In this document: positions 10,345 through 48,626 of the stretch, piece after piece
Layout: each line of letters opens with the position of its first letter
Position numbering within the stretch: the first letter of the stretch is position 1
DNA from: Candidatus Levyibacteriota bacterium
GTDB lineage: Bacteria; Patescibacteriota; Microgenomatia; Levybacterales; GWA1-39-11
Direction of reading: 5' to 3'
Assembly: GCA_050255815.1 (NCBI GenBank)
Contig: JBLMVJ010000035.1
Coordinates: 10,727-74,726 of the forward strand
Length of the DNA: 64,000 nucleotides
Position numbers and translations under genes: made by a program
The notes under the pieces: generated by a model
Seen by the model: only the letters and a program-made list of their open reading frames with translations
Databases searched by the model: none
What the model was told of the DNA's origin: nothing

Positions 10345-10557
10345 TTGAAGACTAGACCGCCGCCGAAGGCACTTTCCTTGGGAAGCCCCAAAAAGGCAAG
10401 CCCAAAAAGCAAGGTAGTATCCCGCAAACGCGTAAGCGTGTTCGGAACTTGCTTTCTAATGCAGAAATGCACGGGAAGAAATTCCTGGATCCTTACCGGC
10501 CCTAGTTCATCCGAATTCTGGCTTTGCAAGCCAACAGCTCATGGAGAGATGCCATGA
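10345..10557 (+). CDS. Small highly basic hypothetical protein (70 aa) with a TTG start
   Basis: AGGAGG RBS 7 nt upstream of the TTG. Lys/Arg/Pro-rich. Its stop overlaps the next start (ATGA). Confidence 0.4.
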   Translation: MKTRPPPKALSLGSPKKASPKSKVVSRKRVSVFGTCFLMQKCTGRNSWILTGPSSSEFWLCKPTAHGEMP

Positions 10558-11990
10558 ATTGGACTGCGCTACTAGCGTGGGTGATGGACCCAGTCCGCAC
10601 CCTTGACGAACTTCGGCAGGCGCACCTTGCCCTGATCGGCCATCCCAACATGGGGAACCGCGTTCAGGTGCGTGCGCGCGTGAGGAACTACATCAATCTG
10701 ATGATCGCCACCCAAGGTGGAGGAGCTCCTGCTCCTTGGCACCCTGGCATGGGCGCTCCTGTGGTTCCTCCAACGCCAACACCTGGCCCTGCGCCCGTTC
10801 CTGGTCCTGGCCCTGCGCCCGTTCCTGGTCCTGGCCCTGCGCCCATCGTCCCGCTCGTTCCGGTTGTCGGCTATCGCCCACGCATGTGGACGTACCGCCG
10901 AATGATACGGAGAGCGCTAAACGAGGGCAACACCGCCTGGATGGATACCGAACTCACGGCATGGGGAGACCCTCCGGGAGTCGGCACTCCAGCACAGCGT
11001 GCGTACCGGCTCGAGAACTTCTCGAGGTCACGGCACGGGTGGAACCGCATCGGGCATGATATCCCGGAGCTTGTTCCGCCTGGCGCACCGGCACCGGCAC
11101 CCCGCCGACAGGTGGACTACGGTCCCCTTGGGTGGATCGCAGGTGCTCTGCTGATCGCAGCCGGCGCAGCCGTACTGTTCTTCGCCTTGATTCTGCCTCT
11201 CTCCAAGTGGGGATGGGACCAGAGCTTCGGCGACGACACGGCAGTGCAGCAGCCCGGCAACCAGCCTGGTAACCAGCCCGGCGGCAACAACGGCAACGGT
11301 AGCGGCAACGCGAACCAGCCTGGCAACAACGGCAACGGTAGCGGCAACGCGAACCAGCCCGGCAACCAGCCCGGCAATAGCGGCGTCATCAAGAACTTGG
11401 CCGACGGCCAGTTCCCCTGGACACCGCCCACACCGGGTACCGACCTTGGGAACGACAAGCAGTTCACCAGCACCATCATCGAGCAGGCCAAGCAGGGAGA
11501 CTGGATTCACAGGCTCTTCAACCCTGGCTTGTTCAACGCAGCCAATAACTACGGCGGAGCCGATTCTTGGGCTATTAGCCTGAACGTCGGTCCGAACGCT
11601 GGTGGCAGCTGGAAGGGCGAGGGAGTCTCGGGACGCTTCGTCTACCGTGCTGTGCAGAATCAGGTGGGTTGGTGCCTTGGCATCCTCACCTCGAAGACGT
11701 GGAACAACATCGACCTGAAGAGTCAACTCCTCAGCGGTTCAGACCCCAGTTTGCCGATCGGATTCAACGTCCGCATCGAACCAGGGTCTACCGTGATGGT
11801 GAAGACGAACTCAGGCGAGATCAAGTCCGGCGTCACAAGCGACATGGGTGATATCCAAGTCGTTCTGCCAGACAGCGGGCTGACCACCATCTGCACTGCG
11901 TTCAGCACTGCAGCACCTACGGGTGAAAGCCAGCTTTGGGTGGGACCTCGGGACCGCTCCAAGGACATCAACACGATCGACGCGCGGTAA
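10553..11990 (+). CDS. Single-pass membrane protein with Pro-rich (PGPAPVPG x3) and NGNGSGNANQPGN tandem repeats and a C-terminal beta-rich extracytoplasmic domain. Function unknown.
   Basis: The track gives 10524..11990. I prefer the ATG at 10553, which has a GGAGAG RBS and an ATGA overlap with the upstream stop. TM helix WIAGALLIAAGAAVLFFALILPL. GC about 63%. Confidence 0.6.
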
Positions 11991-12410
11991 CGCACGGCGA
12001 TCCCAGACTCCTCGGAGTTGCCGATGGAGAGTACCTTAACGTCACGAGCACCGCCTAACCGCTGTGATGATCGTGGTCCGCCTGGAAAAGGAGGTTGACG
12101 ATAACCCTCTGGGTTGTCAGGATCCTGAGCGCAAGCTTGAGGATCTCCTCCACTACGGCGGACAGACTGGACAGTTTATGTGTTTCACGCTCCTTTGAGT
12201 TTTGCATTCAAAGAAAGTCGTGTCACGGCAAAAACTGGTTCCAGTCAGGGTGAGAGACTCATTTATTGAGAATTGATTGGATTTTTTCCATCAAGTCTCT
12301 TTTGAGACTTTCTCCCACCTACATGCCTTTGCGTCTCCCTCACCATTATGGTGAGGGACTGATGAGTATTCTTTCGGAGAAATCTGAGGGAAACGAAACG
12401 CAAAAAAAAC

Positions 12411-20039: not shown

Positions 20040-21434
20040 TTAGGAAAGTTTGCTAACCAGAGGTAATAATCCCTTTGCAGTTTCCATGGTCACGGCTTTA
20101 AACCCAAACTTCTTTGCCTCCTTGATACGTTTTTCCAGGTTCATAACCTTCTTAATCTCTCCCAACAGGCCTACCTCTGCTATGGCAGCAGTTTTAGCAA
20201 GCGATTTTCCTTTCAGGGAGCTTATGATAGACAGGCACACTGCCAGGTCTGAAGCCGGCTCTGATATCTTAAAGCCACCTACTACATTTACGTACACATC
20301 ATACTTATCCAGCGGCAGCTTTCCATGTTTCTGCAGGATAGCCAGCAAGAGTTCCAGGCGTTTCTCTGAAACACCGTTTGCAACGCGGCGGGGAAAAGCC
20401 AGGCTGGAATGGATTACTAATGCTTGTATCTCTACTAAAATAGGTCTGCTCCCCTCCATGATAACTGCTACACAAGAACCGGGGGAAGCAACAGAGTCAC
20501 CCATGAACAATTCAGACAAGTCTGTAATTTGTTTAAGGCCATATTCTTCCATACCAAATATTCCCACCTCTGAGGTATCCCCAAACCTGTTTTTAAATGC
20601 CCGTAGAATACGCACTCCGGTCATTTTCTCTCCTTCCAGGTATAACACGGTATCAACCATATGGGACAACATCATAGGGCCTGCCACCATCCCTTCCTTA
20701 GTCACATGGCCTATGAGAAAAACCGGGGTGTGAGTAGTCTTTGCAAAAGCTACAAGCCTACCCGTAGCATGGCGCACCTGGGGAATAGAACCTGCATAAC
20801 CGGGGACGTCCCCACTCTCCATAGTCTGGATTGAGTCAATGATCAGCAGGTCAAAGTGTTCTTGCTGTGCCTGCTCCAGGGCTAAATCTATGTCTGAGGT
20901 AGCTAAGATAAATAAATTTTCCGAGTTAGTTTTCCTGTCTTTTTGCAGCCTTTGTGCCCGGAGAGTAACTTGCGCTTCAGATTCTTCACCGGTAACATAC
21001 AGTATCTTGCGGGTGGCGGGTAGCGAGTGGCTTGTAGTTTTCTCACCACCTGCTACGTGCCCTTTGCTATCTGCCAGGTTAAGCGCCGTCTGTAAAAGTA
21101 TTGTTGACTTACCAACCCCCGGATCTCCTGAAAGTAAGACTACGGAACCGGGGACAATCCCGGCTCTGGCCTCCTCCCCCAAAACTCTATCAAACTCTGA
21201 GAACCCCGTAGAAAACCGCTCTACCAAATTTACTTTCACATCACTTATCCTGGTCGGCTTTGCTGAGGAAACGAATTTGGAACTGTGACTCTTTGCCCCT
21301 CTGCCCCTCTGACTCTCAGAAGTCTTAAACTCTTTCATGGTATTCCATTCCCCACACTCCGGGCATTTTCCGTACCATTTTTGCGAGTCGTATCCGCAAC
21401 TACTGCAGACGAATGAAATATTAGTTTTAGACAT
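20040..21434 (-). CDS. radA: DNA repair protein RadA/Sms
   Basis: N-terminal C4 zinc finger (CSSCGYDSQKWYGKCPECGEW). Walker A GDPGVGKST. KNRFG motif. Lon-like C-terminal domain. Confidence 0.9.
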   Translation of the reverse strand: MSKTNISFVCSSCGYDSQKWYGKCPECGEWNTMKEFKTSESQRGRGAKSHSSKFVSSAKPTRISDVKVNLVERFSTGFSEFDRVLGEEARAGIVPGSVVLLSGDPGVGKSTILLQTALNLADSKGHVAGGEKTTSHSLPATRKILYVTGEESEAQVTLRAQRLQKDRKTNSENLFILATSDIDLALEQAQQEHFDLLIIDSIQTMESGDVPGYAGSIPQVRHATGRLVAFAKTTHTPVFLIGHVTKEGMVAGPMMLSHMVDTVLYLEGEKMTGVRILRAFKNRFGDTSEVGIFGMEEYGLKQITDLSELFMGDSVASPGSCVAVIMEGSRPILVEIQALVIHSSLAFPRRVANGVSEKRLELLLAILQKHGKLPLDKYDVYVNVVGGFKISEPASDLAVCLSIISSLKGKSLAKTAAIAEVGLLGEIKKVMNLEKRIKEAKKFGFKAVTMETAKGLLPLVSKLS

Positions 21435-21439
21435 ATTTC

Positions 21440-21510
21440 CGAGGGAATTTAGAGTCTAGAATTCAGATTTCAGAATTAAATTTTGAATTCTAAATTTTGA
21501 ATTCTAAATT
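21440..21510. repeat. AT-rich GAATTC/AATTCTAAATT repeat tract between radA and the S1 gene
   Basis: TTTGAATTCTAAATT x2 plus GAATTCAGATTTCAGAATT. Similar tracts at 42785-42840 and inside the 23S insertion at 34490-34560. Confidence 0.6.
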
Positions 21511-22596
21511 CTACCGGTATCCTACGAAGGTCTTCGTAACAATAGGAGATAATACAACTACTCTCTTTTTGGTATCAACTTCTACCACTTCTGCACTTAC
21601 AGACTGTCCTGGTTCATAGGTGGTACCTGCAGGAATCTTGCTGGAAGAAATAAATCCATTTACACCGTCTCCCAGTTTAACAGTCACACCCTTTGACCTT
21701 ACATCTGAAACGGTCCCGGTTACTTTCTCTTCCGGCTTAAACTTCTCTGCTGCTTTAGCAAATGAGTCGTTGAGCAGAGATTTTACTGAAAGGTTTACCC
21801 TCCTGTTCTCTGCGTCTACGCTTAACACTACCGCCTCAAATGCATCACCTTTTTTATATAAATCATTTAAGTTCTCTACCCTCTCATGGGAAATCTCAGA
21901 AATATGGATAAAACCTTCGGTAAGTTTTCCTTCTGTTGCCTGCGTAGTCACATACACACCATATGATGCAACCTGGGAAACAGTTACCGGCACTTTTTTA
22001 TCTTTGGGGAAAAGTTTGCGCAAAATCTCTGCATCAGTTACATATGAAACAGCTTTCTGGGAAAAAATAGCCCTCTTTTTTGTTTTGTCAGACTCAATAA
22101 TTTTTACTTCTATAGTTTTGCCGCTTAGGTTCTCTCCGTCAAGCACCTGTGAGTTAGGAAGAAAACCGCGGATGCCATTTTCTGCTTCAACAAAAAATCC
22201 GCCGCGGGTAGGTTCTAAAACTTTCACGCTTACGGTCAGGTTATCTGCCAGTGCCTTGTCTAAATTAGAGAAAATGAGGTTGCCCAGCGTACGGCGCAGA
22301 GAAACAACAGGAAAACCCTCTTCTGCTTCAGGAGAAATAACAACAGCTTTTACTTTTTCTCCTACTTTCAGCATGGAAAGCAGGTGGTTGAGGTTATTTT
22401 TATCAACTTCCAGAACTAATGCATCTGATTTTGCACCAATATCTAAAAGGATTTCTTGGGGAGTGAGTTTTTTAACGGTTCCTTCTACTTCCTCACCTTT
22501 TTTAAACACCTTAAAACTTGAGGATGACCTGGCCATGAGCTCAGCCATGGAAGAAGCATGTCCTGGATTAGATGCGTTTTTGCTTGAAGTTGGCAC
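21511..22596 (-). CDS. rpsA: S1 RNA-binding domain protein (ribosomal protein S1-like, four S1 repeats)
   Basis: Repeated S1 folds (GTVKKLTPQEILLDIG..., GKTIEVKIIESD..., GFIHISEISHERV..., GTVSDVRSKGVTVKLGDGVNGFI). Confidence 0.7.
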   Translation of the reverse strand: MPTSSKNASNPGHASSMAELMARSSSSFKVFKKGEEVEGTVKKLTPQEILLDIGAKSDALVLEVDKNNLNHLLSMLKVGEKVKAVVISPEAEEGFPVVSLRRTLGNLIFSNLDKALADNLTVSVKVLEPTRGGFFVEAENGIRGFLPNSQVLDGENLSGKTIEVKIIESDKTKKRAIFSQKAVSYVTDAEILRKLFPKDKKVPVTVSQVASYGVYVTTQATEGKLTEGFIHISEISHERVENLNDLYKKGDAFEAVVLSVDAENRRVNLSVKSLLNDSFAKAAEKFKPEEKVTGTVSDVRSKGVTVKLGDGVNGFISSSKIPAGTTYEPGQSVSAEVVEVDTKKRVVVLSPIVTKTFVGYR

Positions 22597-28895: not shown

Positions 28896-29681
28896 ATGCA
28901 TTACCTAAAGATCTTAAAAGCGCTGATAGTCATTAACACCGCATACGCGTTAGAGTACAAGGCGCATTTTGTGGCCCAGGTTTTTGCAAGCCTGGCCTGG
29001 GGCGTATTTTCCGTGGTCAACATGATCCTTTTGACGTACCGCGTCCACTCTGCTTTTGGCTGGAGCAGGAATGAGCTCATCCTTCTTTCCGTTATGGTTA
29101 ATGTAGTCTATGGCATCCACCGTATGTTGTTTGATGTAAACTTCTGGAGATTCTCCCGGATTATCCATTATGGAGAAATGGACATGGTGCTGTTAAAGCC
29201 CGTGGACTCCCAGTTCCAAATGAGCATGTGGATCATAGATATTAGCGGTATCTTCAGATTTTTAGTTGCCCTAGCGCTCACCTTTATCCTGGTTTTTGCC
29301 ATGCACTTTCCTATTTCTCTGACAAGTGTGTTGATTGCCACTATTTTAAGCCTGGCCGGTGTGGTCCTTCTCTATGCTTTCACCTATATCTTCCTAACCC
29401 TCACCATCTGGTTCTCTAACCTCTCTAACCTGATGGGACTGGTGAATAATATCCTTTCTATGTCCCGGTATCCAAAAGAAATGTATGAAGGATTAGGCAC
29501 CTACTTTTTCTTTTTTCTCTTGCCTTTAATTGTTATAATAAGCACTCCTACAAAAGCTCTCATCCAAAAGGGGAACCTGTTAGATAGTCTGCTTTTAGTA
29601 CTCTTTACTATCCTATTTTTTGCAATCTCAAGGGTGTTCTGGAAATTCGCCCTGCGGTTCTATGTCAGTGCTTCAGGATAA
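28896..29681 (+). CDS. ABC-2 family transporter permease (paralog 2 of 4)
   Basis: 261 aa polytopic membrane protein. 1-nt gap from the upstream gene. Confidence 0.65.
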   Translation: MHYLKILKALIVINTAYALEYKAHFVAQVFASLAWGVFSVVNMILLTYRVHSAFGWSRNELILLSVMVNVVYGIHRMLFDVNFWRFSRIIHYGEMDMVLLKPVDSQFQMSMWIIDISGIFRFLVALALTFILVFAMHFPISLTSVLIATILSLAGVVLLYAFTYIFLTLTIWFSNLSNLMGLVNNILSMSRYPKEMYEGLGTYFFFFLLPLIVIISTPTKALIQKGNLLDSLLLVLFTILFFAISRVFWKFALRFYVSASG

Positions 29682-29717
29682 ACAGGAAATTAATAGATAT
29701 TCATAGAAATTAAGAAA

Positions 29718-30587
29718 TTGATTGTAATTACACAATTTAGTTTCCATGAATTTCGCGACCGTAGGGAGCTTATTTCCAAAAATTTCTTTCTTATGTATAA
29801 ATATTTCCGTATCTTCACCAATGTCTGGGGCAAAGCCCTTTCTTACCGGGTCAACTTTATCATGTGGCGTGTCCGTGTGGTGCTCCAACTTCTAACGTTA
29901 TTCTTTTTGTGGTCTACTATTCTCACCAACAGGACTGCTATCTTTGGCTACTCTACTTCCCAAATGCTCACGTACATTTTAGGCACTTCGCTCATTTCTT
30001 CTGTAGTTTTGTCCAGCCGCACTTTTGAAGTAGGAGACCAGATAAATGACGGTACGCTTTCTAATTTTCTGATCAAACCCATGTCCTACATAAAATACTG
30101 GTTCTTTTATGACCTGGGGGATAAAGCCAGCAACATATTTTTCTCTATAATCGAATTAACGATAATCATCTTTCTGTTCCGTCCGCCCCTTTATGTCCAA
30201 ACCAATCCCACCTATCTCATGTTTACCCTGGTTTCCGCGTTTTTAGCATTACTTTTATACTTTTACTTTGGCTTTTTACTGGGGCTTTTAGGATTCTGGA
30301 GCAATGAAGTGTGGGGACCACGCTTTATTTTCTTTATCATCATTAACTTTTTTGCCGGCGCTATGTTCCCGCTGGATGCGCTGCCAAAACAAGTGGTAAG
30401 CGTTCTCCAGCTTTTCCCATTCCCGTACCTTCTATACTTTCCGCTGAAGATTTATTTAGGAAAGATTTCTTTCCCGTTGATTATTCAAGGGCTCTTCATC
30501 TGTTCCGTGTGGATGGTAGGATTGTATTTTATTTGTAAATTTATCTGGTTAAAAGGATTGAAATTGTATGGGGCGCAAGGGAGATGA
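29718..30587 (+). CDS. ABC-2 family transporter permease (paralog 3 of 4)
   Basis: 289 aa polytopic membrane protein with architecture similar to its neighbours. Confidence 0.6.
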   Translation: MIVITQFSFHEFRDRRELISKNFFLMYKYFRIFTNVWGKALSYRVNFIMWRVRVVLQLLTLFFLWSTILTNRTAIFGYSTSQMLTYILGTSLISSVVLSSRTFEVGDQINDGTLSNFLIKPMSYIKYWFFYDLGDKASNIFFSIIELTIIIFLFRPPLYVQTNPTYLMFTLVSAFLALLLYFYFGFLLGLLGFWSNEVWGPRFIFFIIINFFAGAMFPLDALPKQVVSVLQLFPFPYLLYFPLKIYLGKISFPLIIQGLFICSVWMVGLYFICKFIWLKGLKLYGAQGR

Positions 30588-33450: not shown

Positions 33451-33484
33451 AAGAATAACTAAACCGATTTTGCTCCTCAGTCCT
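33451..33484 (-). repeat. Partial duplicate of the 5S rRNA 3' end plus its downstream flank (about 34 nt)
   Basis: AAACCGATTTTGCTCCTCAGTCCTGGCCTTGACC at 33451-33484 versus AAACCGGCTTTGCCCTTCAGTCCTGGCCTTGACC at 33581-33614. Confidence 0.6.
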
Positions 33485-33523
33485 GGCCTTGACCTTAGGC
33501 GCGCAGTCCCAAAGGGGGACGAG
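33485..33523. repeat. Motif TTAGGCGCGCAGT-hairpin(GTCCCAAAGGGGGAC)-CGAGCACCGCAAGT. A second copy is at 44883-44923.
   Basis: Conserved 13-nt and 12-nt flanks around different hairpins in the two copies. CGAGCACCGC also occurs at 12044-12053. Confidence 0.6.
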
Positions 33524-33596
33524 CACCGCAAGTCAAGCAACTGGAATGGAAACAAAACAGTACAAATGTAGTAGATGATAAACCGGCTTTGCCCTT

Positions 33597-33719
33597 CAGT
33601 CCTGGCCTTGACCTATCTTCCCATGTTGTGTAACAACAAAGTATTGTGAGCGCTGACGTGTTTCACTTCTCTGTTCGGAATGGGAAGAGGTGGGACCACA
33701 TCGCTCTAAAGACCAAGAC
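33597..33719 (-). rRNA. rrf: 5S ribosomal RNA
   Basis: The reverse complement contains GTGGTCCCACC..CCCATTCCGAACAGAGAAGTGAAAC..GCCAGGAC, matching conserved 5S blocks. Ends are approximate. Confidence 0.8.
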
Positions 33720-34000
33720 TCAAGAGCAAAACCGGTAAGATCCGAATCTACTCGAATAGTTTGGGGTAACTTCTAGGCTACCCCATTCTTCTCGAATATT
33801 TCGAATTAACATTAACAAACACTAGCGCATTCGAATTGATTCGATTTAAATTCGAACCATTCGAGAATGATTTCTTAGAATCCACGCTATTTGGATCGAC
33901 CTATTAGTACAACTTCGCTGAAACAGTTACCTGTCTTACACGTGTTGCCTATCAACCTGATGGTCTCTCAGGGGTCTAAAAGAGATCTTATCTTAGGGTG

Positions 34001-34033
<33 letters not shown>

Positions 34034-34268
34034 CATGGAAATCTAGCTACCCAGCAGTGCACTTGTAAGTACAACTGGCACACCAGGGATTTCCTCACCC
34101 CAGTCCTCTCGTACTAGGGGCGACTCCCTTCAAATCTCAAACGGTTGTCCTGGATAGAGTCCGAACTGTCTTACGACGTTCTTAACCCAGCTCGCGTACC
34201 TTTTTAACTGGCGAACAGCCAGACGCTTGGGAGCTTCTCCACCCCCGCGCTAAGATGAGCCGACATCG

Positions 34269-34699
34269 CTGTCAATCCAATCAGTAATTAAGAAAGACTT
34301 AAAAACTTAAAACTGATGGTGATACTCTTGTTACCAAGAGCCTCTGACTATACCTTCATCCGCCAACTGGCGGAGCTAGTCGTATGATACAGATTATAAA
34401 TTTCTCTTTATGAGATGAATCCATATCTCACCCTCTCACCTATGCTGGTGAGGGGTTCAGTCGATAGGGTCCAAAAGAAATTTAAAATTCAGAAGTTAAA
34501 ATTCAGAATTAAATTCTTAATTCTGAAATCTGAATTCTTAACTCTATTTGAACCTCGGTATTACCCTCTTGTGTTCAGAAAGTAGGGTTTCACCGATTTG
34601 GACTAGTTATTTAAATTATTAGTACCTTGTTTTTTGACTCAAATACTAATAAATACAGGCAAGAGTATTACTACTCAGGCGCCCCGATATTTTCATATA
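34269..34699 (-). other. Group-I-intron-like insertion of 431 nt with no ORF in 23S, at the E. coli position equivalent to about 2500 (GGCACCU^CGAUGUCGGC)
   Basis: Exon junctions inferred by alignment to the recalled E. coli 23S. The 5' exon ends in U and the insert ends in G. It contains a GAATTC-rich AT tract and a CTCACC..GGTGAG hairpin. Confidence 0.5.
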
Positions 34700-34742
34700 A
34701 GGTGCCAAACCGCATCGTCGCTGTGGACGCTTGGATGCGATC

Positions 34743-34775
<33 letters not shown>

Positions 34776-35229
34776 AAGCTACGTCCCAACCACTAAGGAA
34801 CGCAGGATCACTAACACCTGCTTTCGCACCTGCTCGACTTGTAGGTCTCGCAGTCAAGCTGGCTTGTGCGTTTGCACAATACGCTCCGATTTCCGTCCGG
34901 AGTTAGCCAACCTTTGTACGCCTCCGTTGCACTTTAGGAGGCAACCTCCCCAGTTAAACTGCCCACCAGACACTGTCTTTTAGCCGTATTTTTATGCGGC
35001 ATTAAAGTAATGCTCACTCATCTTAAAGAGAGGTATTTCATTGATGACCGAAGTCTCCCTCCTATACTAAACAGTTAAAATAAGCTTGCAAATGTCAAGC
35101 TACAGTAAAGCTCCCGGGGTCTTTTTGTCCTAGGACAACCAGGCCGCGTCTTCACAGCCATCTCAATTTCGCCGTGTAAATGTTCAAGACAGTTACTCAG
35201 TCGTTCTACCTTTCGTGCGGGTCGGAACT

Positions 35230-35547
35230 CCATTGTTTTAATGTTCCAACATGGAACCTCACAGTCGCCTGTGAGATCGGACTATATCTTTCCCTTACCA
35301 AATTGGTGAGGGATCTAGCGTCTAGTCTCTGAGGGTTTTCCGATAAATCGGAATCTTCCCTGCTGATTGGCTCCACCAAGCAGATTTTTACTCTTACGAG
35401 TACTGTTGGATACTGAGCTGTTCCAGCAAATAGCTAGATTTTACACTCATTTAGGTTAACGATTGTGTTCTTACGTGACTGTTTTGCTTGTTCCTGATGT
35501 GTATCCCGATTAGATCGGGACTCGGGCAAGTTGATTTGACCCAAACC
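35230..35547 (-). other. Group-I-intron-like insertion of 318 nt with no ORF in 23S, at the E. coli position equivalent to about 1917 (GUCGGGU^AGUUCCGAC)
   Basis: Flanking exon sequence CCTTGTCGGGTT | AGTTCCGACC. The insert ends in G. It contains TCCCGATTAGATCGGGACT and TTCCGATAAATCGGAA hairpins. Confidence 0.5.
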
Positions 35548-37360
35548 AACCCGACAAGGAACTTCGCTACCATAGAACAGTTATAGTTACTGCTGCCGTT
35601 CACCGGAGCTTTAGAAAGCGGCTCCACCTTGCGGTTTCACCACCCACTATTGACTTACCGGCACTGGGCAGGTGTCAGCCCCTATACGTTACCTTTCGGT
35701 TTTGCAGGGACCTGTGTTTTAGATAAACAGTCGCTAAGTAATCTTTTGCTTAACCTGGATGTTACTCCAGGCAGGGCATCTCCCATAGGTTACGCCCAGC
35801 TTTTGTTGCCGAGTTCCTTGAACATTTGTCTCACGGTCGCCTTAGTCTACTCGACCAATCCACCTGTGTCGGTTATGCGGTACGGCAAAATATAGCACTC
35901 CTCACGAATCTTTTCCTGAAGACTGAAACTTACGATCCTCACCCTACTTTCTTGCGATTTCAGATTTGCATTCGCCACTTAATTAAACACTTTGACGGAT
36001 TTGCCCATCAAAACTATCTTATGGCTTGGACCCTGTTTACAGGGCGATCCTTTCCACTCTTGTCCATCCTTGAGTAATAACGCACTATACTCTGTAGCAG
36101 AATATTAACTGCTTGTCCATCCGGCTACCCCGCGCTTTATGACGGGCCACCGTTAGGAGCCGACTAACGCTGCGCTGACTTACATTGCGCAGCAAACCTT
36201 GGATTTTCGGCGGACGCCGTTCTCAGGCGTCATTCGCTACTCATGCCGGCATTCTCACTTGTAAACGCTCCACCATACCTTACAGTACAGCTTCGCTGCA
36301 TTTACGACGCTCCCCTACCACTTGCTCCGATAAATCGGAGTCAAATCTCCATCGTCGGTATTAAGCTTAATCCTCGATCATTTCCGGCGCCATTCTCCAA
36401 TGTCGACTAGTGAGCTGTTACGCTTTCTTTAAAGGATGGCTGCTTCTGAGCCAACCTCCTAGCTGTCTATGGAAAATGACTTCCTTATCAACTTAGCTTA
36501 AATTTAGAGACCTTAGATGGGAGTCTGGGCTGTTTCCCTTTAGACCCACGAGCTTAGCCCCGCAAGTCTGACTCTCTATTAAGTTTTTACGGTATTCGGA
36601 GTTTGATTGATCCTGAAAAGTTGCCTCTCCAGAGACCATTCAGTGCTCTACCCCCGTAAAAACATACAAAAGGCTATACCAAAATATATTTCGGGGAGAA
36701 CCAGCTATCTCCAGGTTCGTTTAGTATGTCACCCCTTACCACAAGTCGTCTCAGATCATTGCTGCGATCACGAGTTCGGGCCTTCCTCATCCTTTCGAAC
36801 AAGTTCACCCTGCTCATGGTAAGCTCACCTGGTTTCGGGTCTTTTGCAATGCGCATTTAGGTATCCCAGTTAGAGATCGCTTTCACTATGCCTCCCCCCT
36901 CACCTTTCCAACGAAAATTCCAACCTTTGTTTTAAATCGAGCTTGTTTCGATAATATTTCAAAGTGGTAATCCTCATTAGAATGGTGAGGGGTTAGACTG
37001 CGCAATACAAAAACTCACCGGCTCATTCTTCAATAGGCACGACGTTATACCCTTGCGGGCACTTCGTCTGCTTGTTAGCTAATAGTTTCAGTAACTCTTT
37101 CATTCCCCTCCCGGGGTGCTTTTCACCTTTCCCTCGCGGTACTAGTTCACTATCGGTAGATGTTGATATTTAGCTTTGGAGCGTGGTCGCCCCGGCTTCC
37201 CACAGGGTTTAATCGTACCCCATGGTACTCAGGAACAGGCAAGAAGTGAAAATCATTTCAAATACGGGACTATCACCCTCTTTGGTCTCTTTTTCCAAAA
37301 CGTTCTTCTATGATTTCCATTTGTGACTTCTTTTGCATTTAAGCAAGCCGTCCTACAACC

Positions 37361-37660
37361 CCCCTCACCTTTTTATCACTAACCTTTTTAAAAGTTCTTG
37401 CCAAGCTTTTGCGCGCTTCTTAAGCGCCTGCTCTCTTCTAAAAGCTAATTTATAAGAAGTATATGCTTCATAATAAATAAGCTCCCATGGCAAAAACTTT
37501 TTAGTATATATAGACTTTCCTTTATTATGGTCCGTAAATCGAGTTTTAAGATCTTTTGTTGAACCAATATAAAACTGGTCGAACTTTACACTCTTAAGAA
37601 TATACGTGTAGAACATAAGTCTATTATAGTTATTTAAGTTAGGAACAAAAAGGTGAGGGG
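37361..37660 (-). mobile_element. 300-nt insertion in 23S domain I, bounded by a perfect 14-bp inverted repeat (CCCCTCACCTTTTT / AAAAAGGTGAGGGG), encoding a GIY-YIG nuclease. An IVS-like or mini mobile element.
   Basis: Located between the conserved 23S blocks AGTAGCGGCGAGCGAACG and GGGTGATAGTCCCGTA. The terminal inverted repeats were read directly. Confidence 0.6.
37365..37616 (-). CDS. Standalone GIY-YIG nuclease domain protein (YhbQ/UPF0213-like, 83 aa) embedded in the 23S rRNA insertion
   Basis: YTYILKS..FYIGSTKDLKTRFTDHNKG..E has the GIY-YIG layout. Same strand as the rRNA. The stop codon lies inside the left inverted-repeat arm. Confidence 0.7.
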   Translation of the reverse strand: MFYTYILKSVKFDQFYIGSTKDLKTRFTDHNKGKSIYTKKFLPWELIYYEAYTSYKLAFRREQALKKRAKAWQELLKRLVIKR

Positions 37661-38078
37661 TTTGAGCTGTTCCGCGTTCGCTCGCCGCTACTGACGGAAT
37701 CTCTGTGATTTCTTTTCCTCGGACTACTTAGATGTTTCAGTTGGTCCGGTATCCCGCCGACTACTAATATATTAATCTTGCGACTAATAACTTCATAGCA
37801 GGCTCCCAGTTAAACTGGGGGGTTTCCCCATTCGGACACCACCGGATCATAATGTCTTCGGCCATTCCCCGGTGATTTTCGCGAGCCAGATGCGTCCTTC
37901 TTCGGTCAACACCTCCTAGGCATCCACTATTAGCATGAATCAAATAGCGTAGATTCTAAAAAACCAATTCATTAAAAACCATGCCTCGGCTTGAAACATG
38001 GAAAATCCGCCACCCGGCGGATTTTTTTAATCCTCCGTCCCGATTAGATCGGGACTTCGGCCTAGTTGTTTGTTTGTA

Positions 38079-41853: not shown

Positions 41854-42789
41854 TTATGCTTTTTGCATGGTGAGCCAGCGCTCTATATCTAGTGCTGCCA
41901 TGCAGCCAAATCCTGCGGCAGTTACTGCCTGGCGGTACCTATCATCCTGGACATCCCCGGAAACAAAAACACCTTCTATATTAGTCCTCACCCGTTCTTT
42001 TGCGCTTACATACCCGCTTTGCGTCAAATCTACCCCTTTAAAGATAGATGAATTTGGCGTATGGCCAATAGCCACAAATATACCGTCTATAGGCATTTCT
42101 GTTACTTCCTGGGAGACGGTATTCTGGATTTTAACCTTCTCTACTTTGTTCCCCCCCAGTACTTCAACAATTTGAGAGTTAAGCATAACTTTAATTTTTG
42201 GGTTATTTTTTACTTTATCCTGCATAATCTGGGATGCCCTAAAGCTGTCCCTTCTATGGAGCAAGGTAACTTCTGCAAAATTGGTGAGGAAGTTTGCTTC
42301 CTCCATAGCAGAATCCCCTCCGCCTACAACTATGATCTTTTTTCCCCTAAAAAATGCCCCGTCACAGGTTGCACAGTATGAAATACCGCGCCCGGTCAGC
42401 TCTTTTTCACCCGGTACGCCCAGTGTTTTTGAATTCTCACCGGTAGCCAGGAGAAGGGCTTTGCCTTTATAGGTCTTCCCGTCCGCTGTTATAGAAAACG
42501 GAGAGGATGCCCCTGTCAAATCTGTAGGATCAGCATCCGCATTCACGAACGTTACTCCAAAACGCTCTGCCTGGCTTCTCATTTCCATCATAAGCTGGGG
42601 TCCCTGTATTCCTTTGGGAAAGCCCGGGAAGTTTTCAACCTCCGTAGTAAGCATGAGCTGGCCACCCCAAGTCTTCCCTGCAATGATAAGAGTTTTAAGT
42701 CCGGCTCTGGAGGTATAAATTCCTGCAGTGAGGCCGGAAGGACCGGATCCTATGATGATTACATCAAAAATGGGTAATTCAGAATTCAT
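41854..42789 (-). CDS. trxB: Thioredoxin-disulfide reductase
   Basis: FAD site IIGSGPSGLTAG, redox-active CATCDG, NADPH site VVGGGDSAMEEA. Confidence 0.9.
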   Translation of the reverse strand: MNSELPIFDVIIIGSGPSGLTAGIYTSRAGLKTLIIAGKTWGGQLMLTTEVENFPGFPKGIQGPQLMMEMRSQAERFGVTFVNADADPTDLTGASSPFSITADGKTYKGKALLLATGENSKTLGVPGEKELTGRGISYCATCDGAFFRGKKIIVVGGGDSAMEEANFLTNFAEVTLLHRRDSFRASQIMQDKVKNNPKIKVMLNSQIVEVLGGNKVEKVKIQNTVSQEVTEMPIDGIFVAIGHTPNSSIFKGVDLTQSGYVSAKERVRTNIEGVFVSGDVQDDRYRQAVTAAGFGCMAALDIERWLTMQKA

Positions 42790-42840
42790 AATTCAGAGTT
42801 AATAATTAAATTTAGAGTTTAGAATTTTATATTCTAAATT
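42785..42840. repeat. AT-rich GAATTC/TAGAATT repeat tract between trxA and trxB
   Basis: CAGAATTCATAATTCAGAGTTAATAATTAAATTTAGAGTTTAGAATTTTATATTCTAAATTC. Related to the tract at 21440-21510. Confidence 0.55.
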
Positions 42841-42841
42841 C

Positions 42842-43168
42842 TTACGAGGAGAGGGCTTCGTCCAGTGCTTTCTTAAATACGTCTTTTGGCTGGACTCCCA
42901 CGGTAGTTGCTACCGGCTTTCCCTTCTGGAAAATAATAACCGTGGGGATAGACATGATCCCAAAACTGGAAGGGGTTTTTACGTTCTCATCTACGTTCAT
43001 CTTCCCTACCTTTACCTTCCCCTCATACTCTTTCTCCAATTCTTCAATAATAGGAGTGAGCATATGGCAGGGAGTGCACCACTCTGCCCAAAAATCCACC
43101 ACAAAAGGAACGTCTGACTTTAAAACGTCTTGCTCAAATGTATCATCAGAAAGTTTTACAACTGACAT
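42842..43168 (-). CDS. trxA: Thioredoxin with a variant WCTPC active site
   Basis: 108 aa. FWAEWCTPCHMLTP; the canonical motif is WCGPC. Confidence 0.85.
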   Translation of the reverse strand: MSVVKLSDDTFEQDVLKSDVPFVVDFWAEWCTPCHMLTPIIEELEKEYEGKVKVGKMNVDENVKTPSSFGIMSIPTVIIFQKGKPVATTVGVQPKDVFKKALDEALSS

Positions 43169-43305: not shown

Positions 43306-44736
43306 ATGAGTGTCCCAGAGAGATTATTATTATTAGGGGAGGGTTGCTTTATGAAAGTAAGTTCTGCCCGAGAGGACATATTTATTGTTTTTTTGTCCTT
43401 CTGGAGCACAATTTTATTAACGCGTTATCTAACGTTTGAATTTATTAAGGTGTTCCACCAGTATCCTGTCCTGTACCTTTCAGGTGTGCCTATCCATCAC
43501 TTTTTAGTTGGCCTCATTCTAGTTTCTTTTGTCCTGGTAGTACGCATATTCAGGAATAGTTTTTCCCTGATTAATTTGATTCTCTTAGGCATGGGGTTGG
43601 GCTTTATTACTGATGAATTCTGGCTCATAACCACCGGGGATTTCACTACAAATAATATCTACTGGGCAGGGGAAAATCTCACGGCTATCGTTGTTTTGGG
43701 CCTCCTCTCTTTTTTGTTTGTGAAGTTTCTGGAAAGGCGGTCCAGTATGAAGCTGGATAAAGGAAACCGTCCGCTGCATGTAAACCCAAAAAATCCGCTG
43801 GTCTCCGTGGTTATCCCCGCTTTAAATGAAGAGAAGTTCCTGGAAAATAACCTATATAGCATCATCCAGCAAAAATTTAAGGATTTTGAGCTGATTGTAG
43901 TAGACAACAATTCTACTGACAGGACTGCTGAAATAGCCCGGTCTTTTGGTGCAAAAGTCATTTTCAACGCAGTAAAAGGCGTGGGCGCAGCGCGCCAGGC
44001 CGGATTCATGGCGGCAAAAGGCAAAATTATAGCTACCACAGACGCTGACAATATTTTACCCAGGGATTGGTTGGAAACCATAGTGAAACGGTTTGAAAAA
44101 GACCCTGAACTGGTAGCTTTTGGGGGCCTTTTCCGCCTCTACTCCGGACCGCTTTCAGCACGTATTGCCGTAAAGTACCTTTCCTATCATATGTTCAAGC
44201 TGGATAAGCTGTTTGCGCATAACTGGAGTTTAATTGCCCAGAACATGGCGGTGAAGAAAAGCGCATTCCTGAAAGTAGGTGGCTTTAAGCATGTCCAAAT
44301 GGGAGAAGACGCGGACCTGGCACAACGGCTGGGCAATATTGGAAAGGTTGAACTGGACCCCAACTTTTTAGTATATGCATCCGGAAGGCGCGTGCGGCAC
44401 GGCCTGTGGTATGGCATCTGGTCTTATGGCCCCAATGCGTTTAGCCGAATGTTTTTTAAAAAGCATAAATTTGACCGCCTACCCACGGTGAGGAAAGAAA
44501 AATCTATCATCAACAACTTCTCTTTTATTCCGCTTTTAGCTTCAGTTATTTACCTTATTATCCTGTTTACCTCTATGAATGCGTCTTTAAACCATGCAAA
44601 ACAGGATTTGTTGCATAAAACGTCTATCAGCATCTCTAAGATGAAGCTTAAAAAGATTGCGTCAGAACTGGGCCCAACCCTCCCCTGGAGTGAACTGATT
44701 AAGAAAACTCGCGACCTCCACTTCCTGGAGAATTAG
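43306..44736 (+). CDS. Membrane-embedded glycosyltransferase family 2 (N- and C-terminal TM segments flanking a GT-A domain)
   Basis: VSVVIPALNEEKFLENNLYSIIQQKFKDFELIVVDNNSTDRTAEIA, DxD (TTDADN), and TM helices at both ends. Confidence 0.75.
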   Translation: MSVPERLLLLGEGCFMKVSSAREDIFIVFLSFWSTILLTRYLTFEFIKVFHQYPVLYLSGVPIHHFLVGLILVSFVLVVRIFRNSFSLINLILLGMGLGFITDEFWLITTGDFTTNNIYWAGENLTAIVVLGLLSFLFVKFLERRSSMKLDKGNRPLHVNPKNPLVSVVIPALNEEKFLENNLYSIIQQKFKDFELIVVDNNSTDRTAEIARSFGAKVIFNAVKGVGAARQAGFMAAKGKIIATTDADNILPRDWLETIVKRFEKDPELVAFGGLFRLYSGPLSARIAVKYLSYHMFKLDKLFAHNWSLIAQNMAVKKSAFLKVGGFKHVQMGEDADLAQRLGNIGKVELDPNFLVYASGRRVRHGLWYGIWSYGPNAFSRMFFKKHKFDRLPTVRKEKSIINNFSFIPLLASVIYLIILFTSMNASLNHAKQDLLHKTSISISKMKLKKIASELGPTLPWSELIKKTRDLHFLEN

Positions 44737-44779
44737 GTGCTATTCTCTTCAACTCTGCGAAATCATATAAACAACTTCC

Positions 44780-44834
44780 TTAATTTCATCACTTGGAATA
44801 TAAAACCATGGAGGAATGAATGAGTGAGCGCCCG
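44780..44834 (+). repeat. Conserved intergenic element, copy B (TTAATTTCATCACTTGGAATATAAAACCATGGAGGAATGAATGAGTGAGCGCCCG)
   Basis: About 85-90% identical to copy A at 5578-5626. Confidence 0.6.
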
Positions 44835-44842
44835 AAAAAAAT

Positions 44843-44884
44843 CACAGACCCGCACGTGCGATTGGGTCTGTGACTTCTTATTTT
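44843..44884 (+). terminator. Intrinsic terminator: hairpin CACAGACCC-N12-GGGTCTGTG followed by ACTTCTTATTTT
   Basis: 9-bp perfect stem read directly, followed by a T-rich tract, downstream of the GT2 gene. Confidence 0.55.
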
Positions 44885-44923
44885 AGGCGCGCAGTTCCGA
44901 TTTATCGGAACGAGCACCGCAAA
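44883..44923. repeat. Second copy of the TTAGGCGCGCAGT-hairpin(GTTCCGATTTATCGGAAC)-CGAGCACCGCAAAG motif
   Basis: Flanks identical to 33485-33523. The internal hairpin belongs to the CCGAT..ATCGG family. Confidence 0.6.
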
Positions 44924-44951
44924 GCTTAATACATTTTGAATATAATCAAAA

Positions 44952-45596
44952 TTAAGCTTTATAATACCGTTTGATTTGGAATAATAGGTAAAAACCTACT
45001 AAATCAAACACAACTCCGGAGATAGAAATAGCAAGAACAGATGAAACAAGTGTTACTACTTCTGACCAGAACATCATGTTCCACCCATTCATCTTGCCGC
45101 TTTTAAGTCCGGGGAAGGCTGCAAGCATTAATCCTGAAGAAGCAATTAACAAAACTGCTGCTAATATGCCGCTTCCGGCTGCTCTTACGCCTCCTACTCC
45201 TCCTAAGGCAGCAAGCGGAGAAAGTGTTGCCATGATTCCCAAACCTGCAATTCCTGCAAGCAATCCTAATATTCCAAAGATTAAAGCAACCCATGGAGCA
45301 AGTTTAACTAATACTTCCTGGAAGTTTTTAGGCAGGGAAGGAACTGCGGAATACCACTTCTCTACTGTCTCTATGATTGAATCAGTTGATGATTTTGCCA
45401 TATATACAAAGTCACCTCCTTTAGAAGCTCTTGCTTGTTGAGAAGCAAAAAGCTTAGAGATTCTTAAGCCCCTCGGAAAACGCTCCGTGAGGCGTGAACG
45501 AATAGTTCTGAAAAGCCGAACGGTAAGTTCAGTGGGGCTAAACAGACTATCTATAATTATTGTGTATGAAAATTTCCTTTGATGCAAGAGGACCAA
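44952..45596 (-). CDS. Hypothetical integral membrane protein (4 TM helices)
   Basis: 214 aa with hydrophobic segments rich in Gly/Ala. No motif recognised. Confidence 0.55.
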   Translation of the reverse strand: MVLLHQRKFSYTIIIDSLFSPTELTVRLFRTIRSRLTERFPRGLRISKLFASQQARASKGGDFVYMAKSSTDSIIETVEKWYSAVPSLPKNFQEVLVKLAPWVALIFGILGLLAGIAGLGIMATLSPLAALGGVGGVRAAGSGILAAVLLIASSGLMLAAFPGLKSGKMNGWNMMFWSEVVTLVSSVLAISISGVVFDLVGFYLLFQIKRYYKA

Positions 45597-48485: not shown

Positions 48486-48626
48486 ATCTTAAGTTAACCA
48501 CAGGAAAATTGACTAGTCAATGAAAAGGAAATTAATAGATATTAATAGAAATTAAGAAATTGATTGTAATTGCACAATTAATTTCCATGAATTTCGCGAA
48601 GCAAGTTTCTATCAGTTTCTAAGGTG

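Follow-up and report, generated by a model that had tools for sequence, protein, structure and literature searches.

A conserved hairpin at gene ends in Microgenomates-type CPR bacteria, the candidate terminus of a small mobile element

The motif and its surroundings

The window analysed here is a 64,000-nucleotide stretch of a contig from a Candidatus Levyibacteriota metagenome-assembled genome (MAG). Two convergent open reading frames, at 43306-44736 on the plus strand and 44952-45596 on the minus strand, enclose an intergenic region in which a sequence-only reading had recognized a repeated element, a strong terminator and a hairpin with conserved flanks. (The called start of the window's first open reading frame is probably mis-set.) The window contains exactly two copies of each hairpin flank: TTAGGCGCGCAGT is found at 44883-44895 and 33495-33507, and CGAGCACCGCAA at 44911-44922 and 33520-33531. 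They define two copies of the motif, at 44883-44922 (site B) and 33495-33531 (site A). The copy beside the 5S rRNA gene had been placed at 33485-33523, about 10 nt from its true position. As had been noted, the enclosed hairpins of the two sites are unlike each other, and both are fully paired. A third appearance, proposed at 12044-12053, is a bare CGAGCACCGC with neither 5' flank nor hairpin. It receives no score from the covariance model described below and is rejected as a chance match.

The motif folds on the minus strand, which is the sense strand and is opposite to the strand on which it had first been read. There it takes the form YUGCGGUGCUC-(variable hairpin)-UGCGCGCCUA, and the general formula of this core hairpin, designated M, is GCGGUGCUC-(variable stem-loop)-UGCGCGCCUA. 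The core lacks the U-tract of an intrinsic terminator; its 3' neighbour is AAAUAAG at site B or AGGUCAAGG at site A. Neither site matches a family in Rfam 15 at the gathering threshold, and at E<=10 the short regions return solely weak, irrelevant matches to snoRNA models, miRNA models and viral pseudoknots. ARAGORN reports a tRNA-Ala only. Literature searches by sequence strings and keywords found no description of the element, which, judging from these searches of Rfam and the literature, appears to match no described family.

The three intergenic features, which lie within 145 nt, do not form the single composite that had been suggested. The terminator does have a strong stem, of 10 bp (CACAGACCC/GGGTCTGTG), but the good T-run ascribed to the plus strand is absent, the tail there being CTTCTTATTTT. 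A run of seven T follows the hairpin proper (44873-44842) on the minus strand instead, at 44841-44835. A consensus terminator scanner missed this structure because its loop is longer than 8 nt. The terminator belongs ancestrally to the minus-strand gene, and a relative without the motif has an identical copy. The third feature, called 'element copy B', is a real repeat of about 70 nt on the plus strand, 90% identical over 50 nt to its other copy (Table 1). It occurs twice in the window and in none of the loci that had been collected by that stage, and it is unrelated to the hairpin element.

Table 1. Features of the window that bear on the hairpin motif
Feature	Position	Strand	Evidence
Chance 10-mer CGAGCACCGC (formerly 'third copy')	12045..12054	+	No 5' flank or hairpin; no score from model R1
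Original 5S 3' end with processing-stalk strand, now displaced (downstream copy)	33460..33495	-	Sequence; hand pairing
Core hairpin M, copy A, UUGCGGUGCUC-G[UCCCCCUUUGGGA]C-UGCGCGCCUA	33496..33531	-	R1 54.6 bits; RNA fold -16.9 kcal/mol
Unit A, 119-nt insertion inside the 5S rRNA gene, 15 nt short of its 3' end	33496..33614	-	36-nt repeat; L071/L070
5S rRNA as now expressed, last 15 nt from unit A	33600..33717	-	Rfam RF00001, 74.6 bits
'Element copy B', separate repeat of about 70 nt	44767..44837; other copy 5565-5636	+	Repeat search
Intrinsic terminator of gene 45401->44952, stem TCACAGACCC/GGGTCTGTGA then T7	44835..44873	-	Identical hairpin after the L060/L061 orthologue
Displaced original gene end AAATAA (Lys-stop), directly 3' of the core	44878..44883	-	L060: TAC AAA TAA contiguous with gene
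Core hairpin M, copy B, UUGCGGUGCUC-G[UUCCGAUAAAUCGGAA]C-UGCGCGCCUA	44884..44922	-	R1 56.6 bits; RNA fold
Unit B, complete 77-nt insertion	44884..44960, read 44960->44884	-	Empty site in L060/L061; fold
Hairpin 1 of unit B	44921..44960	-	Perfect 10-bp complement 38 nt upstream, TAT before it
Host gene of unit B, 149-aa membrane protein	44952..45401	-	P0001 100% identical, annotated Candidatus Levyibacteriota

Insertions that carry replacement gene ends

The main feature, beyond anything in the sequence-only reading, is that the motif is the end of an insertion, 77 nt long at site B and 119 nt at site A, that carries a replacement gene end. The last two codons and the stop codon of the gene at site B are insertion-derived. 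In a relative whose host protein is 89% identical (L060/L061) the site is empty and reads ..CGGTATTAC^AAATAA (the caret marks a junction), followed by the same terminator. The two alleles are thus TAC-AAATAA in the relative and TAT-(77 nt)-AAATAA in the window. The window protein ends ..YYKA-stop; all 20 of the other homologues read end ..Y(Y/F)K-stop.

Unit B consists of hairpin 1 (AAAGCTTAAT-loop-ATTAAGCTTT), core hairpin M (GCGGTGCTCG..CTGCGCGCC) and a final TA, in that order. It folds into two abutting hairpins with z = -5.9 for a folded stretch shifted by one base; copy B of the core gives -18.7 kcal/mol and z = -3.9 as RNA. The 5' arm of hairpin 1 (44960-44951) is the source of the new codons K-A-stop. 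Its 3' arm (44930-44921), which overlaps the first TT of the core, is a guide-like arm designated X'. This arm matches the displaced target only at AAA, and guide-target pairing is therefore not required for every insertion.

Unit A is built from a 36-nt replacement 5S 3' end and trailer, a 38-nt spacer, the arm GCTTGACTT and core hairpin M. The 36-nt direct repeat is 89% identical, and 18 of 19 positions of the displaced stalk strand still pair, by hand, with the 5S leader. One related locus (L071) is an empty site where the 5S trailer runs directly into the downstream block, leaving a gap of about 119-125 nt, and another (L070) holds a decayed copy at the matching place.

The same anatomy recurs in units from other genomes. 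In the sense direction of the host gene, a unit spans about 45-120 nt and contains no open reading frame beyond the host tail. It begins with a copy of the gene's last 1-13 codons and stop, or of the 5S rRNA 3' end and trailer, continues with arm X', a perfect complement to the unit's first 8-15 nt, and closes at the right end with the conserved core hairpin. The match to X' is located 16-69 nt upstream as its complement; in 9 of 11 non-nested units it comes directly after AT, and the left flanks show no consensus beyond this. Hand reading extends this AT^A rule to L006, L024, L033, L043 and window unit A. On the right, every canonical CPR-type unit ends in CCTA^A, and one variant copy (L019 7165-7206) in CCTA^G. 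Units therefore sit between AT and A, shortly before the natural gene end; the gene is now completed by element-borne sequence, leaving its original tail idle immediately past CCTA.

When excised, units fold as two abutting hairpins, and hairpin 1 begins at nucleotide 1 in the four units that were written out explicitly. The left hairpin is unit-specific, being host-gene sequence and its complement, and the conserved hairpin is found only at the right end. No gene lies within any unit seen. A search for an autonomous version, with the X' complement sought up to 3 kb upstream, yielded just 7-9-nt matches that chance can explain.

Across related genomes, units are present, absent, stacked or decayed. 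The rpsO site is empty in L062, L064-67 and L069, filled by one unit in L015 and by three stacked units in L063, and occupied by a decayed unit in L068. From this distribution among related, not identical, genomes we infer that the units may be mobile. Simple nested insertion would not yield the order of tails seen in the triple stack (element-type, host-type, element-type). The earlier suggestion that the motif is att-like and marks the borders of variable regions survives in part: it forms the right-hand border of a segment that relatives have or lack, and the link to a high-GC island fell with the chance match at 12044.

Element-borne and displaced tails encode nearly the same peptides in different codons. 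Six independent pairs of tails contain 51 nucleotide differences and 2 non-synonymous codons, for an expectation of about 32 and a minimum of 22 in 20,000 simulations; one further pair, in L046, has the same pattern. Homologues end ..YYK-stop and ..LGLPK-stop, as the downstream copies do, and the element-borne versions end ..YYKA-stop and ..LGLPQ-stop. Variable residues agree within a genome, with KLALPK three times in L063 versus KLGLP twice in L015, and I/I in L042 versus L/L in L052. The L019 unit at 6749-6789 (own sense strand) has no recognizable downstream tail copy.

The apparent 'duplication' is a functional gene tail and not a mechanical duplication. Simple target-site duplication was rejected as the whole story because the copies differ like random synonymous encodings, their similarity stops at the stop codon, and those of window unit B are not colinear (AAAGCTTAA versus AAATAA). 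The target of a diversity-generating retroelement was also discarded: the tails are too short, adenines are not where they differ, and it is implausible that such an element would target ribosomal proteins or 5S rRNA.

A larger precedent exists for such paired tails. The e14 prophage of E. coli encodes its own integrase and uses one fixed attachment site. Its integration in icd leaves a displaced fragment, icdC, and this element of about 15 kb is reported to excise site-specifically under SOS induction (PMC13626634). The units resemble e14 in icd in that the element-borne tail completes the gene and pushes the host tail to the far side, the tails differ mostly at synonymous sites, and filled and empty alleles coexist. 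An element-borne gene 3' end together with a retained, displaced host copy is observed in both. Unlike e14, the units are 45-120 nt long, encode nothing and hold no integrase or other genes. They also occupy many genes as well as 5S rRNA, with junction identity of at most 2-5 nt.

Because a replacement tail beside a synonymously differing displaced tail is just the outcome of e14 integration, the units could be scars of larger integrative elements, prophages or islands at gene 3' ends whose bulk was deleted to leave attL, a stub and attR. This explanation is improbable. Over 20 independent units, each in a different setting among various genes, measure 45-120 nt without exception and finish in the same intact hairpin beside the displaced tail; no unit seen encloses a gene, and the X/X' distances found are 16-69 nt. 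Targets as diverse as 5S, rpsO, rpsG, rpmJ and membrane proteins would not be allowed by a single integrase and attP, and the X/X' hairpin is unit-specific.

Structure and distribution of the core hairpin

A covariance model of the core (R1) was built on 23 family members. Both window copies score with E values of about 1e-21 (Table 1), and the next best match in the 64 kb reaches 10.5 bits. In the 23-sequence alignment, 94.9% of cells are paired and double changes occur in 9 of 13 pairs; none of 500 shuffles equals the observed percent paired, number of double-changed cells or covariation score. The lower stem is irregular, with a 2x2 loop, a U.G pair that is invariant in the alignment, a U.C mismatch and a bulged U. 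Variant copies compensate in this stem as well, where GGUGC/GCGCC becomes GGUCC/GGGCC or GAUCC/GGGUC. An invariant irregular lower stem beneath a freely varying top is an anatomy that suits recognition by a protein, and the earlier idea of a protein-binding or processing site can be kept in this qualified form.

A search for further copies had been suggested, and database scans recovered the identical 22-nt core around differing, compensatory hairpins in Curtissbacteria, Levyibacteriota, other low-GC MAGs and metagenome contigs. A Sandaracinus MAG has at least ten copies within a longer GC-rich repeat. CPR genomes in GTDB carry one to three exact cores each, and the window has two in 64 kb. 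Most GTDB matches in high-GC genomes were discarded as chance occurrences inside coding sequence, without a hairpin. In viral contigs the core matched once, by chance, within GC-rich coding sequence (L072), and the variant core had no match. Repeats of Acidovorax (L004/10/23) and of the Roseinatronobacter type (L021/50/51/56) have the flanks and no clear hairpin, and were set aside. Wherever orientation can be resolved, the core has the same sense as the gene upstream of it (5S, rpmJ-rplE, rpsG, rpsO-pnp, KH-protein-trmD and htrA). Selection imposes this orientation in any event, and the evidence fits DNA and RNA alike.

The position of the core at gene 3' ends and between operon genes, always sense, together with its strong sequence conservation over lineages, could reflect a cis-acting RNA of the host. 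Such a 3'-end stabiliser, processing site or protein-binding site would have spread by duplication or recombination and been kept as useful and immobile, and the hairpin between stop codon and terminator at site B is well placed for this role. We consider it rather unlikely, however, because coding sequence and a 5S gene are interrupted, not trailed, and because the hairpin is accompanied by a replacement tail and a self-complementary arm. In addition, close relatives do without the hairpin at the same sites, units stack at one site and decay, and an identical 22-nt core at unrelated loci in different phyla needs transfer, not local evolution.

Several mobile repeats also end in irregular hairpins. 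IS200/IS605 elements insert 3' of a fixed tetra- or pentanucleotide without target duplication and have a right end about 10 nt past the hairpin foot, and their Y1 transposases bind the hairpin top. Like IS200/IS605 elements and REP/BIME sequences, the units have at gene 3' ends an imperfect, strand-specific hairpin interrupted by mismatches and a bulge. They also share with IS200/IS605 elements an end about 10 nt beyond the foot and a likely single-stranded substrate, and their insertion 3' of a short sequence, here the dinucleotide AT in most units, is reminiscent of that family. If the motif were a RAYT-mobilized REP-type repeat or an IS200/IS605-derived MITE, these conserved irregularities would be accounted for, and perhaps also the repeat copies of the Sandaracinus MAG.

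Nevertheless, this origin is very unlikely. REP/BIME palindromes have a GTAG or CGTC tag at one end (PMC3733652), and they often number more than 100 per genome, usually as inverted pairs (PMC2817692). In the alignment the core starts with YTGCGG and ends with GCCTAA, with neither tag on either strand; copy numbers are low, as given above, and no inverted pairs were seen. Unlike either kind of element, a unit has one conserved hairpin, at the right end only, and not similar subterminal palindromes at both ends. Its hairpin top is free to vary, its left end is set by pairing to the internal X', and it carries coding sequence of the host gene. REPs are moreover species-specific, and this core is identical across phyla. 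We found no such family described with replacement gene tails.

Integron cassettes offer another parallel, as small coding units with a terminal hairpin, attC, that is recognized by structure, with conserved irregularities and a variable top. Like cassettes, the units are presumably mobilized in trans, and a circular free form is plausible. Unlike attC, the core conserves 22 nt of fixed sequence and has no complementary RYYYAAC/GTTRRRY boxes: its 3' GCCTAA resembles RYYYAA, but its 5' YTGCGG is not TTRRRY. Nor are the units arrayed beside an integrase gene. They are dispersed at gene ends, and the 'cassette' is merely a gene tail inside a resident gene.

In addition to attC, a dif/Xer site, a CRISPR repeat and a relaxase oriT nick region were weighed by hand and dropped, as were a K-turn, loop E, a tRNA-like minihelix, boxA and a mimic of an r-protein operator. 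The oriT comparison arose from TGCGCGCC, which is loosely like the RSF1010 nick region.

A proposed mobile element

The explanation we favour, with a probability of roughly 60%, is that the motif forms the terminal hairpin of a mobile element of Microgenomates-type CPR bacteria that is small, non-autonomous and homing-like. The unit would fold into two adjacent hairpins in which the 5' A and the 3' A abut as if at a nick, and it would move as a 'dumbbell' or circle of single-stranded DNA or RNA. A putative enzyme supplied in trans would recognize the irregular lower stem of M and would cut and join at the 5' edge of whichever strand pairs with X'. Each unit lineage would 'home' to one gene end and persist there as a long-lived presence/absence polymorphism, like that of e14 in icd at about 1/200 of its size, with element-borne and host tails both under protein-level selection. 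The predicted empty junctions are ..CGGTATTAT^AAATAAGAAG.. at site B and ..GGGAAGAT^AGGTCAAGGCCAGGACTGAGGAGC.. at site A, and the predicted circle junction of unit B is ..GCGCGCCTA^AAAGCTTAAT... The low copy number, in the window and in GTDB genomes alike, speaks against a mobile element. A further weakness of the model is that it offers no account of the initial capture, by a unit, of 12-13 codons from a new host gene.

The abutting 5' and 3' ends are also consistent with an RNA event. An intron-like element, extending from the A after AU through CCUA, might be removed from the transcript by a protein endonuclease and a ligase or by other catalysis. X' would then alternate between the unit's 5' end and the 3' exon, and the downstream tail would be used in spliced RNA and the upstream tail in unspliced RNA. 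Retention of both tails at the protein level within one genome is consistent with this scheme, as are the matching variable residues inside a genome (L063, L015, L042 and L052), the constant sense orientation, the invariant U.G pair and the sense-strand G.U pairs read by hand in L019 and L024.

Splicing would be superfluous, however, when the unspliced message already encodes the full protein, and it does not explain presence or absence at the DNA level. The stems of hairpin 1 are perfectly Watson-Crick over 10-15 bp with almost no G.U pairs, which looks more templated or DNA-like. The unit ends (AU^A...CCUA^A) are unlike those of group I (U...G) or group II (GUGYG...AY) introns, and Rfam reveals no known core of an intron or ribozyme, with no relevant match even at E<=10. 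On balance we regard splicing as unlikely.

Homing introns and IStrons share with the proposed mobile element its site-specific occurrence in conserved genes including rRNA, a patchy pattern of empty, filled and decayed sites, and preservation of host function. The units differ from them in having neither a ribozyme core nor an endonuclease gene, and Rfam does detect the window's real group I intron, at 35258-35526, while finding nothing at the units. Host function is also kept differently, through a duplicate gene end and not through demonstrated splicing.

As a tentative extension, the units may represent a previously unrecognized class of mobile element: a protein-less, single-stranded dumbbell or circle of 45-120 nt, with a target-matching arm beside one conserved recognition hairpin and a recoded copy of the displaced gene end that renders insertion harmless, which homes to the ends of essential CPR genes (ribosomal proteins and 5S rRNA) and either cycles between filled and empty states or is spliced from the transcript.

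Genome annotation is affected by these insertions. Gene callers assign slightly wrong C-termini, such as ..YYKA-stop here and ..LGLPQ-stop in the S15 protein of L015, and miss the displaced tails, and 5S rRNA annotations in carrier genomes take in element-derived sequence.

If the units are indeed mobile, few known elements that insert harmlessly inside essential genes would be as small. Their route would be unusual, combining a built-in replacement gene tail with an internal arm defining the element's own left end. The fixed, irregular 22-nt stem beneath its free top would then offer a handle with which to track down its enzyme. In CPR bacteria, a group whose biology is largely unknown, such an enzyme might prove to be a single-strand recombinase or an RNA-processing activity of a new kind.

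Structure and occurrence of the core family

The sequence-only reading had described a hairpin between conserved flanks at two sites in the window. Both flanks do occur exactly, twice each, and the hairpins they enclose are unlike each other. The third occurrence of the 3' flank noted at the right edge of the high-GC island is no further copy: at 12045 there is just CGAGCACCGC, with neither the 5' flank nor a hairpin. A covariance model made from an alignment of 23 family members detects no copies in the window but these two (56.6 and 54.6 bits; runner-up 10.5 bits), and Rfam has no family matching this core.

GTDB was scanned, one genome per species, for TAGGCGCGCAG-N8-30-CGAGCACCGCA. The identical 22 nt surround differing hairpins in three Curtissbacteria MAGs, one Levyibacteriota MAG and two other low-GC MAGs, and ten core copies are present in one Sandaracinus MAG. 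Nine further distinct low-GC loci came from a metagenome scan. Matches in high-GC genomes mostly lack a hairpin and lie inside coding sequence, and so are due to chance.

On the window minus strand, the fold proceeds from a variable outer stem through a 2x2 internal loop (GC/UA), the helix GGUGC/GCGCC including a U.G pair, a U.C mismatch, a C-G pair and a bulged U to a variable hairpin on top. In the 23-member alignment 94.9% of cells are paired and both sides have changed in 9 of 13 pairs; none of 500 shuffles reaches the observed percent paired, double-changed cells or covariation score. Variant copies beside canonical ones have compensatory changes in the lower stem (GGUCC/GGGCC and GAUCC/GGGUC), and even there the U.G pair is constant. 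Because U.G would be an A.C mismatch on the opposite strand, the minus (sense) strand is the folding strand. The core thus represents a structured, strand-specific family. It is sense to the upstream gene in every resolvable context: after 5S in the window, between rpmJ and rplE (L033), after rpsG (L024), between rpsO and pnp (L015), between a KH-domain gene and trmD (L006), and after htrA (L001). The model also finds extra copies in the fetched loci, three of them within 330 nt in L036.

Some matches have other surroundings. In the Sandaracinus MAG (JACKEH01; L002, L012, L013, L016, L020, L022, L026, L034) the core opens a ~130-nt GC-rich repeat that holds a second CTGCGGTGCTCCGCGG. These cores have compensatory GGCC/GCCC tops and a 3' flank of CCTAC, not CCTAA, and the repeat showed no copy of a gene tail. 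Both flanks with longer inserts and an absent or weak hairpin occur in Roseinatronobacter and metagenomes (L021, L050, L051, L056) and in an Acidovorax MAG (L004, L010, L023), where they are repeated near contig ends (L004 and L010 ~430 nt in). A MAG labelled 'uncultured Gammaproteobacteria' (SRP342105_co2_380; 35-40% GC) has four core copies in three contigs (L006, L009, L033) and rpmJ between rplX and rplE; its label may be wrong, as it looks CPR-like.

A short insertion that replaces gene ends

The closest relative of the site-B membrane protein, P0002 (89% identity), is encoded at a locus where 33 nt separate ..CGGTATTAC AAA TAA from TCACAGACCCAATCGCACGTGCGGGTCTG. In the window, ..CGGTATTAT is followed by 77 nt, AAA TAA GAAG and the same hairpin. 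The window protein ends in YYKA, versus Y(Y/F)K in 20 of 20 other homologues read. A 77-nt segment therefore separates TAT from what was once the last codon. The codons 'K A stop' belong to this segment, and the former ending, AAATAA, now stands directly 3' of the core. At site A, the 5S 3' end and trailer are present twice as a direct repeat (36 nt, 89% identical), with 83 nt in between that end in the core. In a relative with GuaB 80% identical (L071), the conserved block TTCTTCCAATTATTAG follows the 5S trailer immediately, leaving a gap of ~119-125 nt against the window; in another relative (L070, 82%), core and second 5S end are both present at this position in decayed form. The core is thus the right end of a short insertion, or unit, with defined boundaries AT/A...CCTA/A (slashes mark junctions).

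An arm (X') of 8-15 nt, which takes in the two T's at the start of the core and ends immediately before GCGG, is the perfect reverse complement of sequence 16-69 nt upstream (X). X begins with A and is preceded by AT in nine of 11 non-nested units, and by CCTA of an earlier core in two nested units. Left boundaries read by hand in the remaining copies follow the same rule: CAT/AAG in L033, GAT/AGG in L043 and window A, AAT/AGG in L024, and insertion inside the stop codon, T/AA, in L006 and a second L009 copy. The unit accordingly spans from that A to CCTA. It folds into two adjacent hairpins with abutting free ends, and the arms of hairpin 1 enclose the remaining codons and the stop codon.

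On the minus strand, the site-B core comes after the stop codon of its upstream gene and before a hairpin with T7. This hairpin (10 bp) is the strong terminator reported earlier between the convergent genes, but it is the ancestral terminator of the minus-strand gene, the same in the relative lacking the insertion; it may additionally serve the plus-strand gene. The 'element copy B' reported there is a real repeat of ~70 nt, but a separate one on the plus strand, with no copy beyond its twin in the window and the loci fetched by then. We read promoter-like and ribosome-binding-site-like features in it. It carries a -10-like TATAAA, GGAGG and ATG and, by eye, opens tiny plus-strand ORFs (MSE..), one of which, at 44812, would read through the terminator hairpin. 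The repeat may mark the start of a gene for a small protein, or act as the promoter of an sRNA.

Coordinates of features (window positions unless a locus is named)
Feature	Position	Strand	Remark
Unit A	33496-33614	-	in 5S rRNA gene
Core A	33495-33531	-	flanks 33495-33507, 33520-33531 (plus strand as written)
Unit B	44884-44960	-	
Core B	44883-44922	-	flanks 44883-44895, 44911-44922 (plus strand as written)
Gene upstream of core B	45401-44952	-	
Terminator hairpin	44873-44842	-	
~70-nt repeat	5565-5636, 44767-44837	+	tiny ORF at 44812
23S rRNA	33883-37949	-	4,067 nt
Group I intron	35258-35526		80.5 bits
Palindromic repeat	21429-21526, 34476-34545, 42773-42842		AT-rich
Shared hairpin	35504-35527, 38038-38061		5' edge of group I intron; tRNA-Ala/23S spacer
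High-GC island	10000-12000		GC 0.58-0.62
Repeat-rich ORF	10524-11990		24-nt units 10782-10829; 12/39-nt units 11247-11375
Tandem paralogues	1235-3373, 3376-5523		712 and 715 aa
65-nt repeat	29678-29742, 48520-48584		AT-rich
Stacked units	L042 5775-5876 (= L047), L057 5335-5439, L036 1417-1748, L063 1004-1190		
Core copy with shared stem	L036 1417-1457		

The insertion carries a replacement gene end, and the host's original end is displaced to the 3' side of the core.

C-terminal peptides before the stop codon (L046 is additional to the six simulated pairs)
Locus	Element-borne	Displaced
L052	KPRNLAKSVTVK	KPRNLAKSVTVK
L015	KDIIGKLGLPQ	KDIIGKLGLPK
L024	RAFSHFRF	RVFSHFRF
L057	NLTSQF	NLTSQF
L036	KIF	KIF
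L046	KEFLDSLSKDVK	NEFLDSLSKDVK

Tail pairs differ by 26-38% in nucleotide sequence, with AGA/CGC, TTA/CTG and TCN/AGY switches among the differences. In six independent pairs, 51 nucleotide differences produce only two non-synonymous codons; random placement predicts ~32 (minimum 22 in 20,000 trials). The ancestral ending is on the downstream copy wherever outgroups exist; a final K is found in nearly all of 120 S15 homologues, as in the membrane-protein homologues (20/20). L063 has KDIIGKLALPK three times. Variable residues match within a genome (A in 3/3 L063 copies, G in 2/2 L015 copies; I in L042, L in L052). Both tails carry the signature of selection at the protein level. Synonymous divergence is saturated while the peptide stays identical, consistent with the two tails having existed side by side for long, each being used at intervals. 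Such use could come about by excision and re-insertion or by splicing.

The survey of rpsO took in nine loci, which represent seven organisms or populations. The site is empty in L062, L064-66 (the same sequence in three samples), L067 and L069, holds one unit in L015 and a decayed unit in L068, and in L063 carries three stacked units (canonical, gutted and variant core), whose X and X' match unit by unit, then a decayed remnant. The insertion is thus polymorphic among relatives and able to stack and decay, and this distribution is the pattern of a homing-type selfish element. Simple nested insertion would not give the host-type codons seen in the middle L063 tail. In stacks at single gene ends (L042/L047, L057, L036, L063), a canonical core adjoins a variant or gutted core, and the same C-terminal peptide appears again after each core.

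Source of the window and its other repeats

The window (GC ~43%) derives from a CPR bacterium, and a Candidatus Levyibacteriota MAG encodes two of its proteins with 100% identity. The minus strand carries a tRNA-Ala/23S/5S operon, apparently without a linked 16S, as the whole window gives no 16S rRNA match. The 23S span exceeds the 2,925-nt model by more than its group I intron, implying >800 nt of further insertions.

An AT-rich palindromic repeat family (..AGAATTCAGAATTAAATTTTGAATTCT..) has one copy within the 23S gene that resembles either another small insertion element or an intervening sequence. Another hairpin, GTCCCGAT(yta)ATCGGGAC, occurs twice, and its stem recurs in L036 as the variable top of one core copy. 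The high-GC island has in-frame tandem repeats inside an ORF that looks like a repeat-rich surface protein gene, possibly acquired. Tandem paralogous genes share ~72% DNA identity (repeat families D1, D3, D4), and the copies of a 65-nt repeat, 18.8 kb apart, are 91% identical.

Candidate mechanism and relation to known elements

The unit may move as a folded single strand. A trans-acting enzyme would recognize the irregular lower stem of the core and cut whichever strand is paired to X', at the 5' edge of that strand. Such a cut would make the integrated form (X' with displaced tail) and the free form (X' with unit start) equivalent substrates. Unit lineages might then last as long-lived polymorphisms at one gene end, by analogy with e14 at icd (PMC13626634). 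One possibility for the initial capture of 12-13 codons is that an alternative upstream AT/A served as the left end during excision.

REP tags and the boxes of integron attC sites are both absent, and the unit lacks a pair of similar end hairpins. Literature text searches, limited in extent, found no description of the element. Functionally it comes closest to integrative elements that replace gene ends, pared down to a hairpin unit that encodes no protein. We give a mechanism of a new kind slightly better than one chance in three, and file the element among small non-autonomous mobile elements, as a variant not described there.
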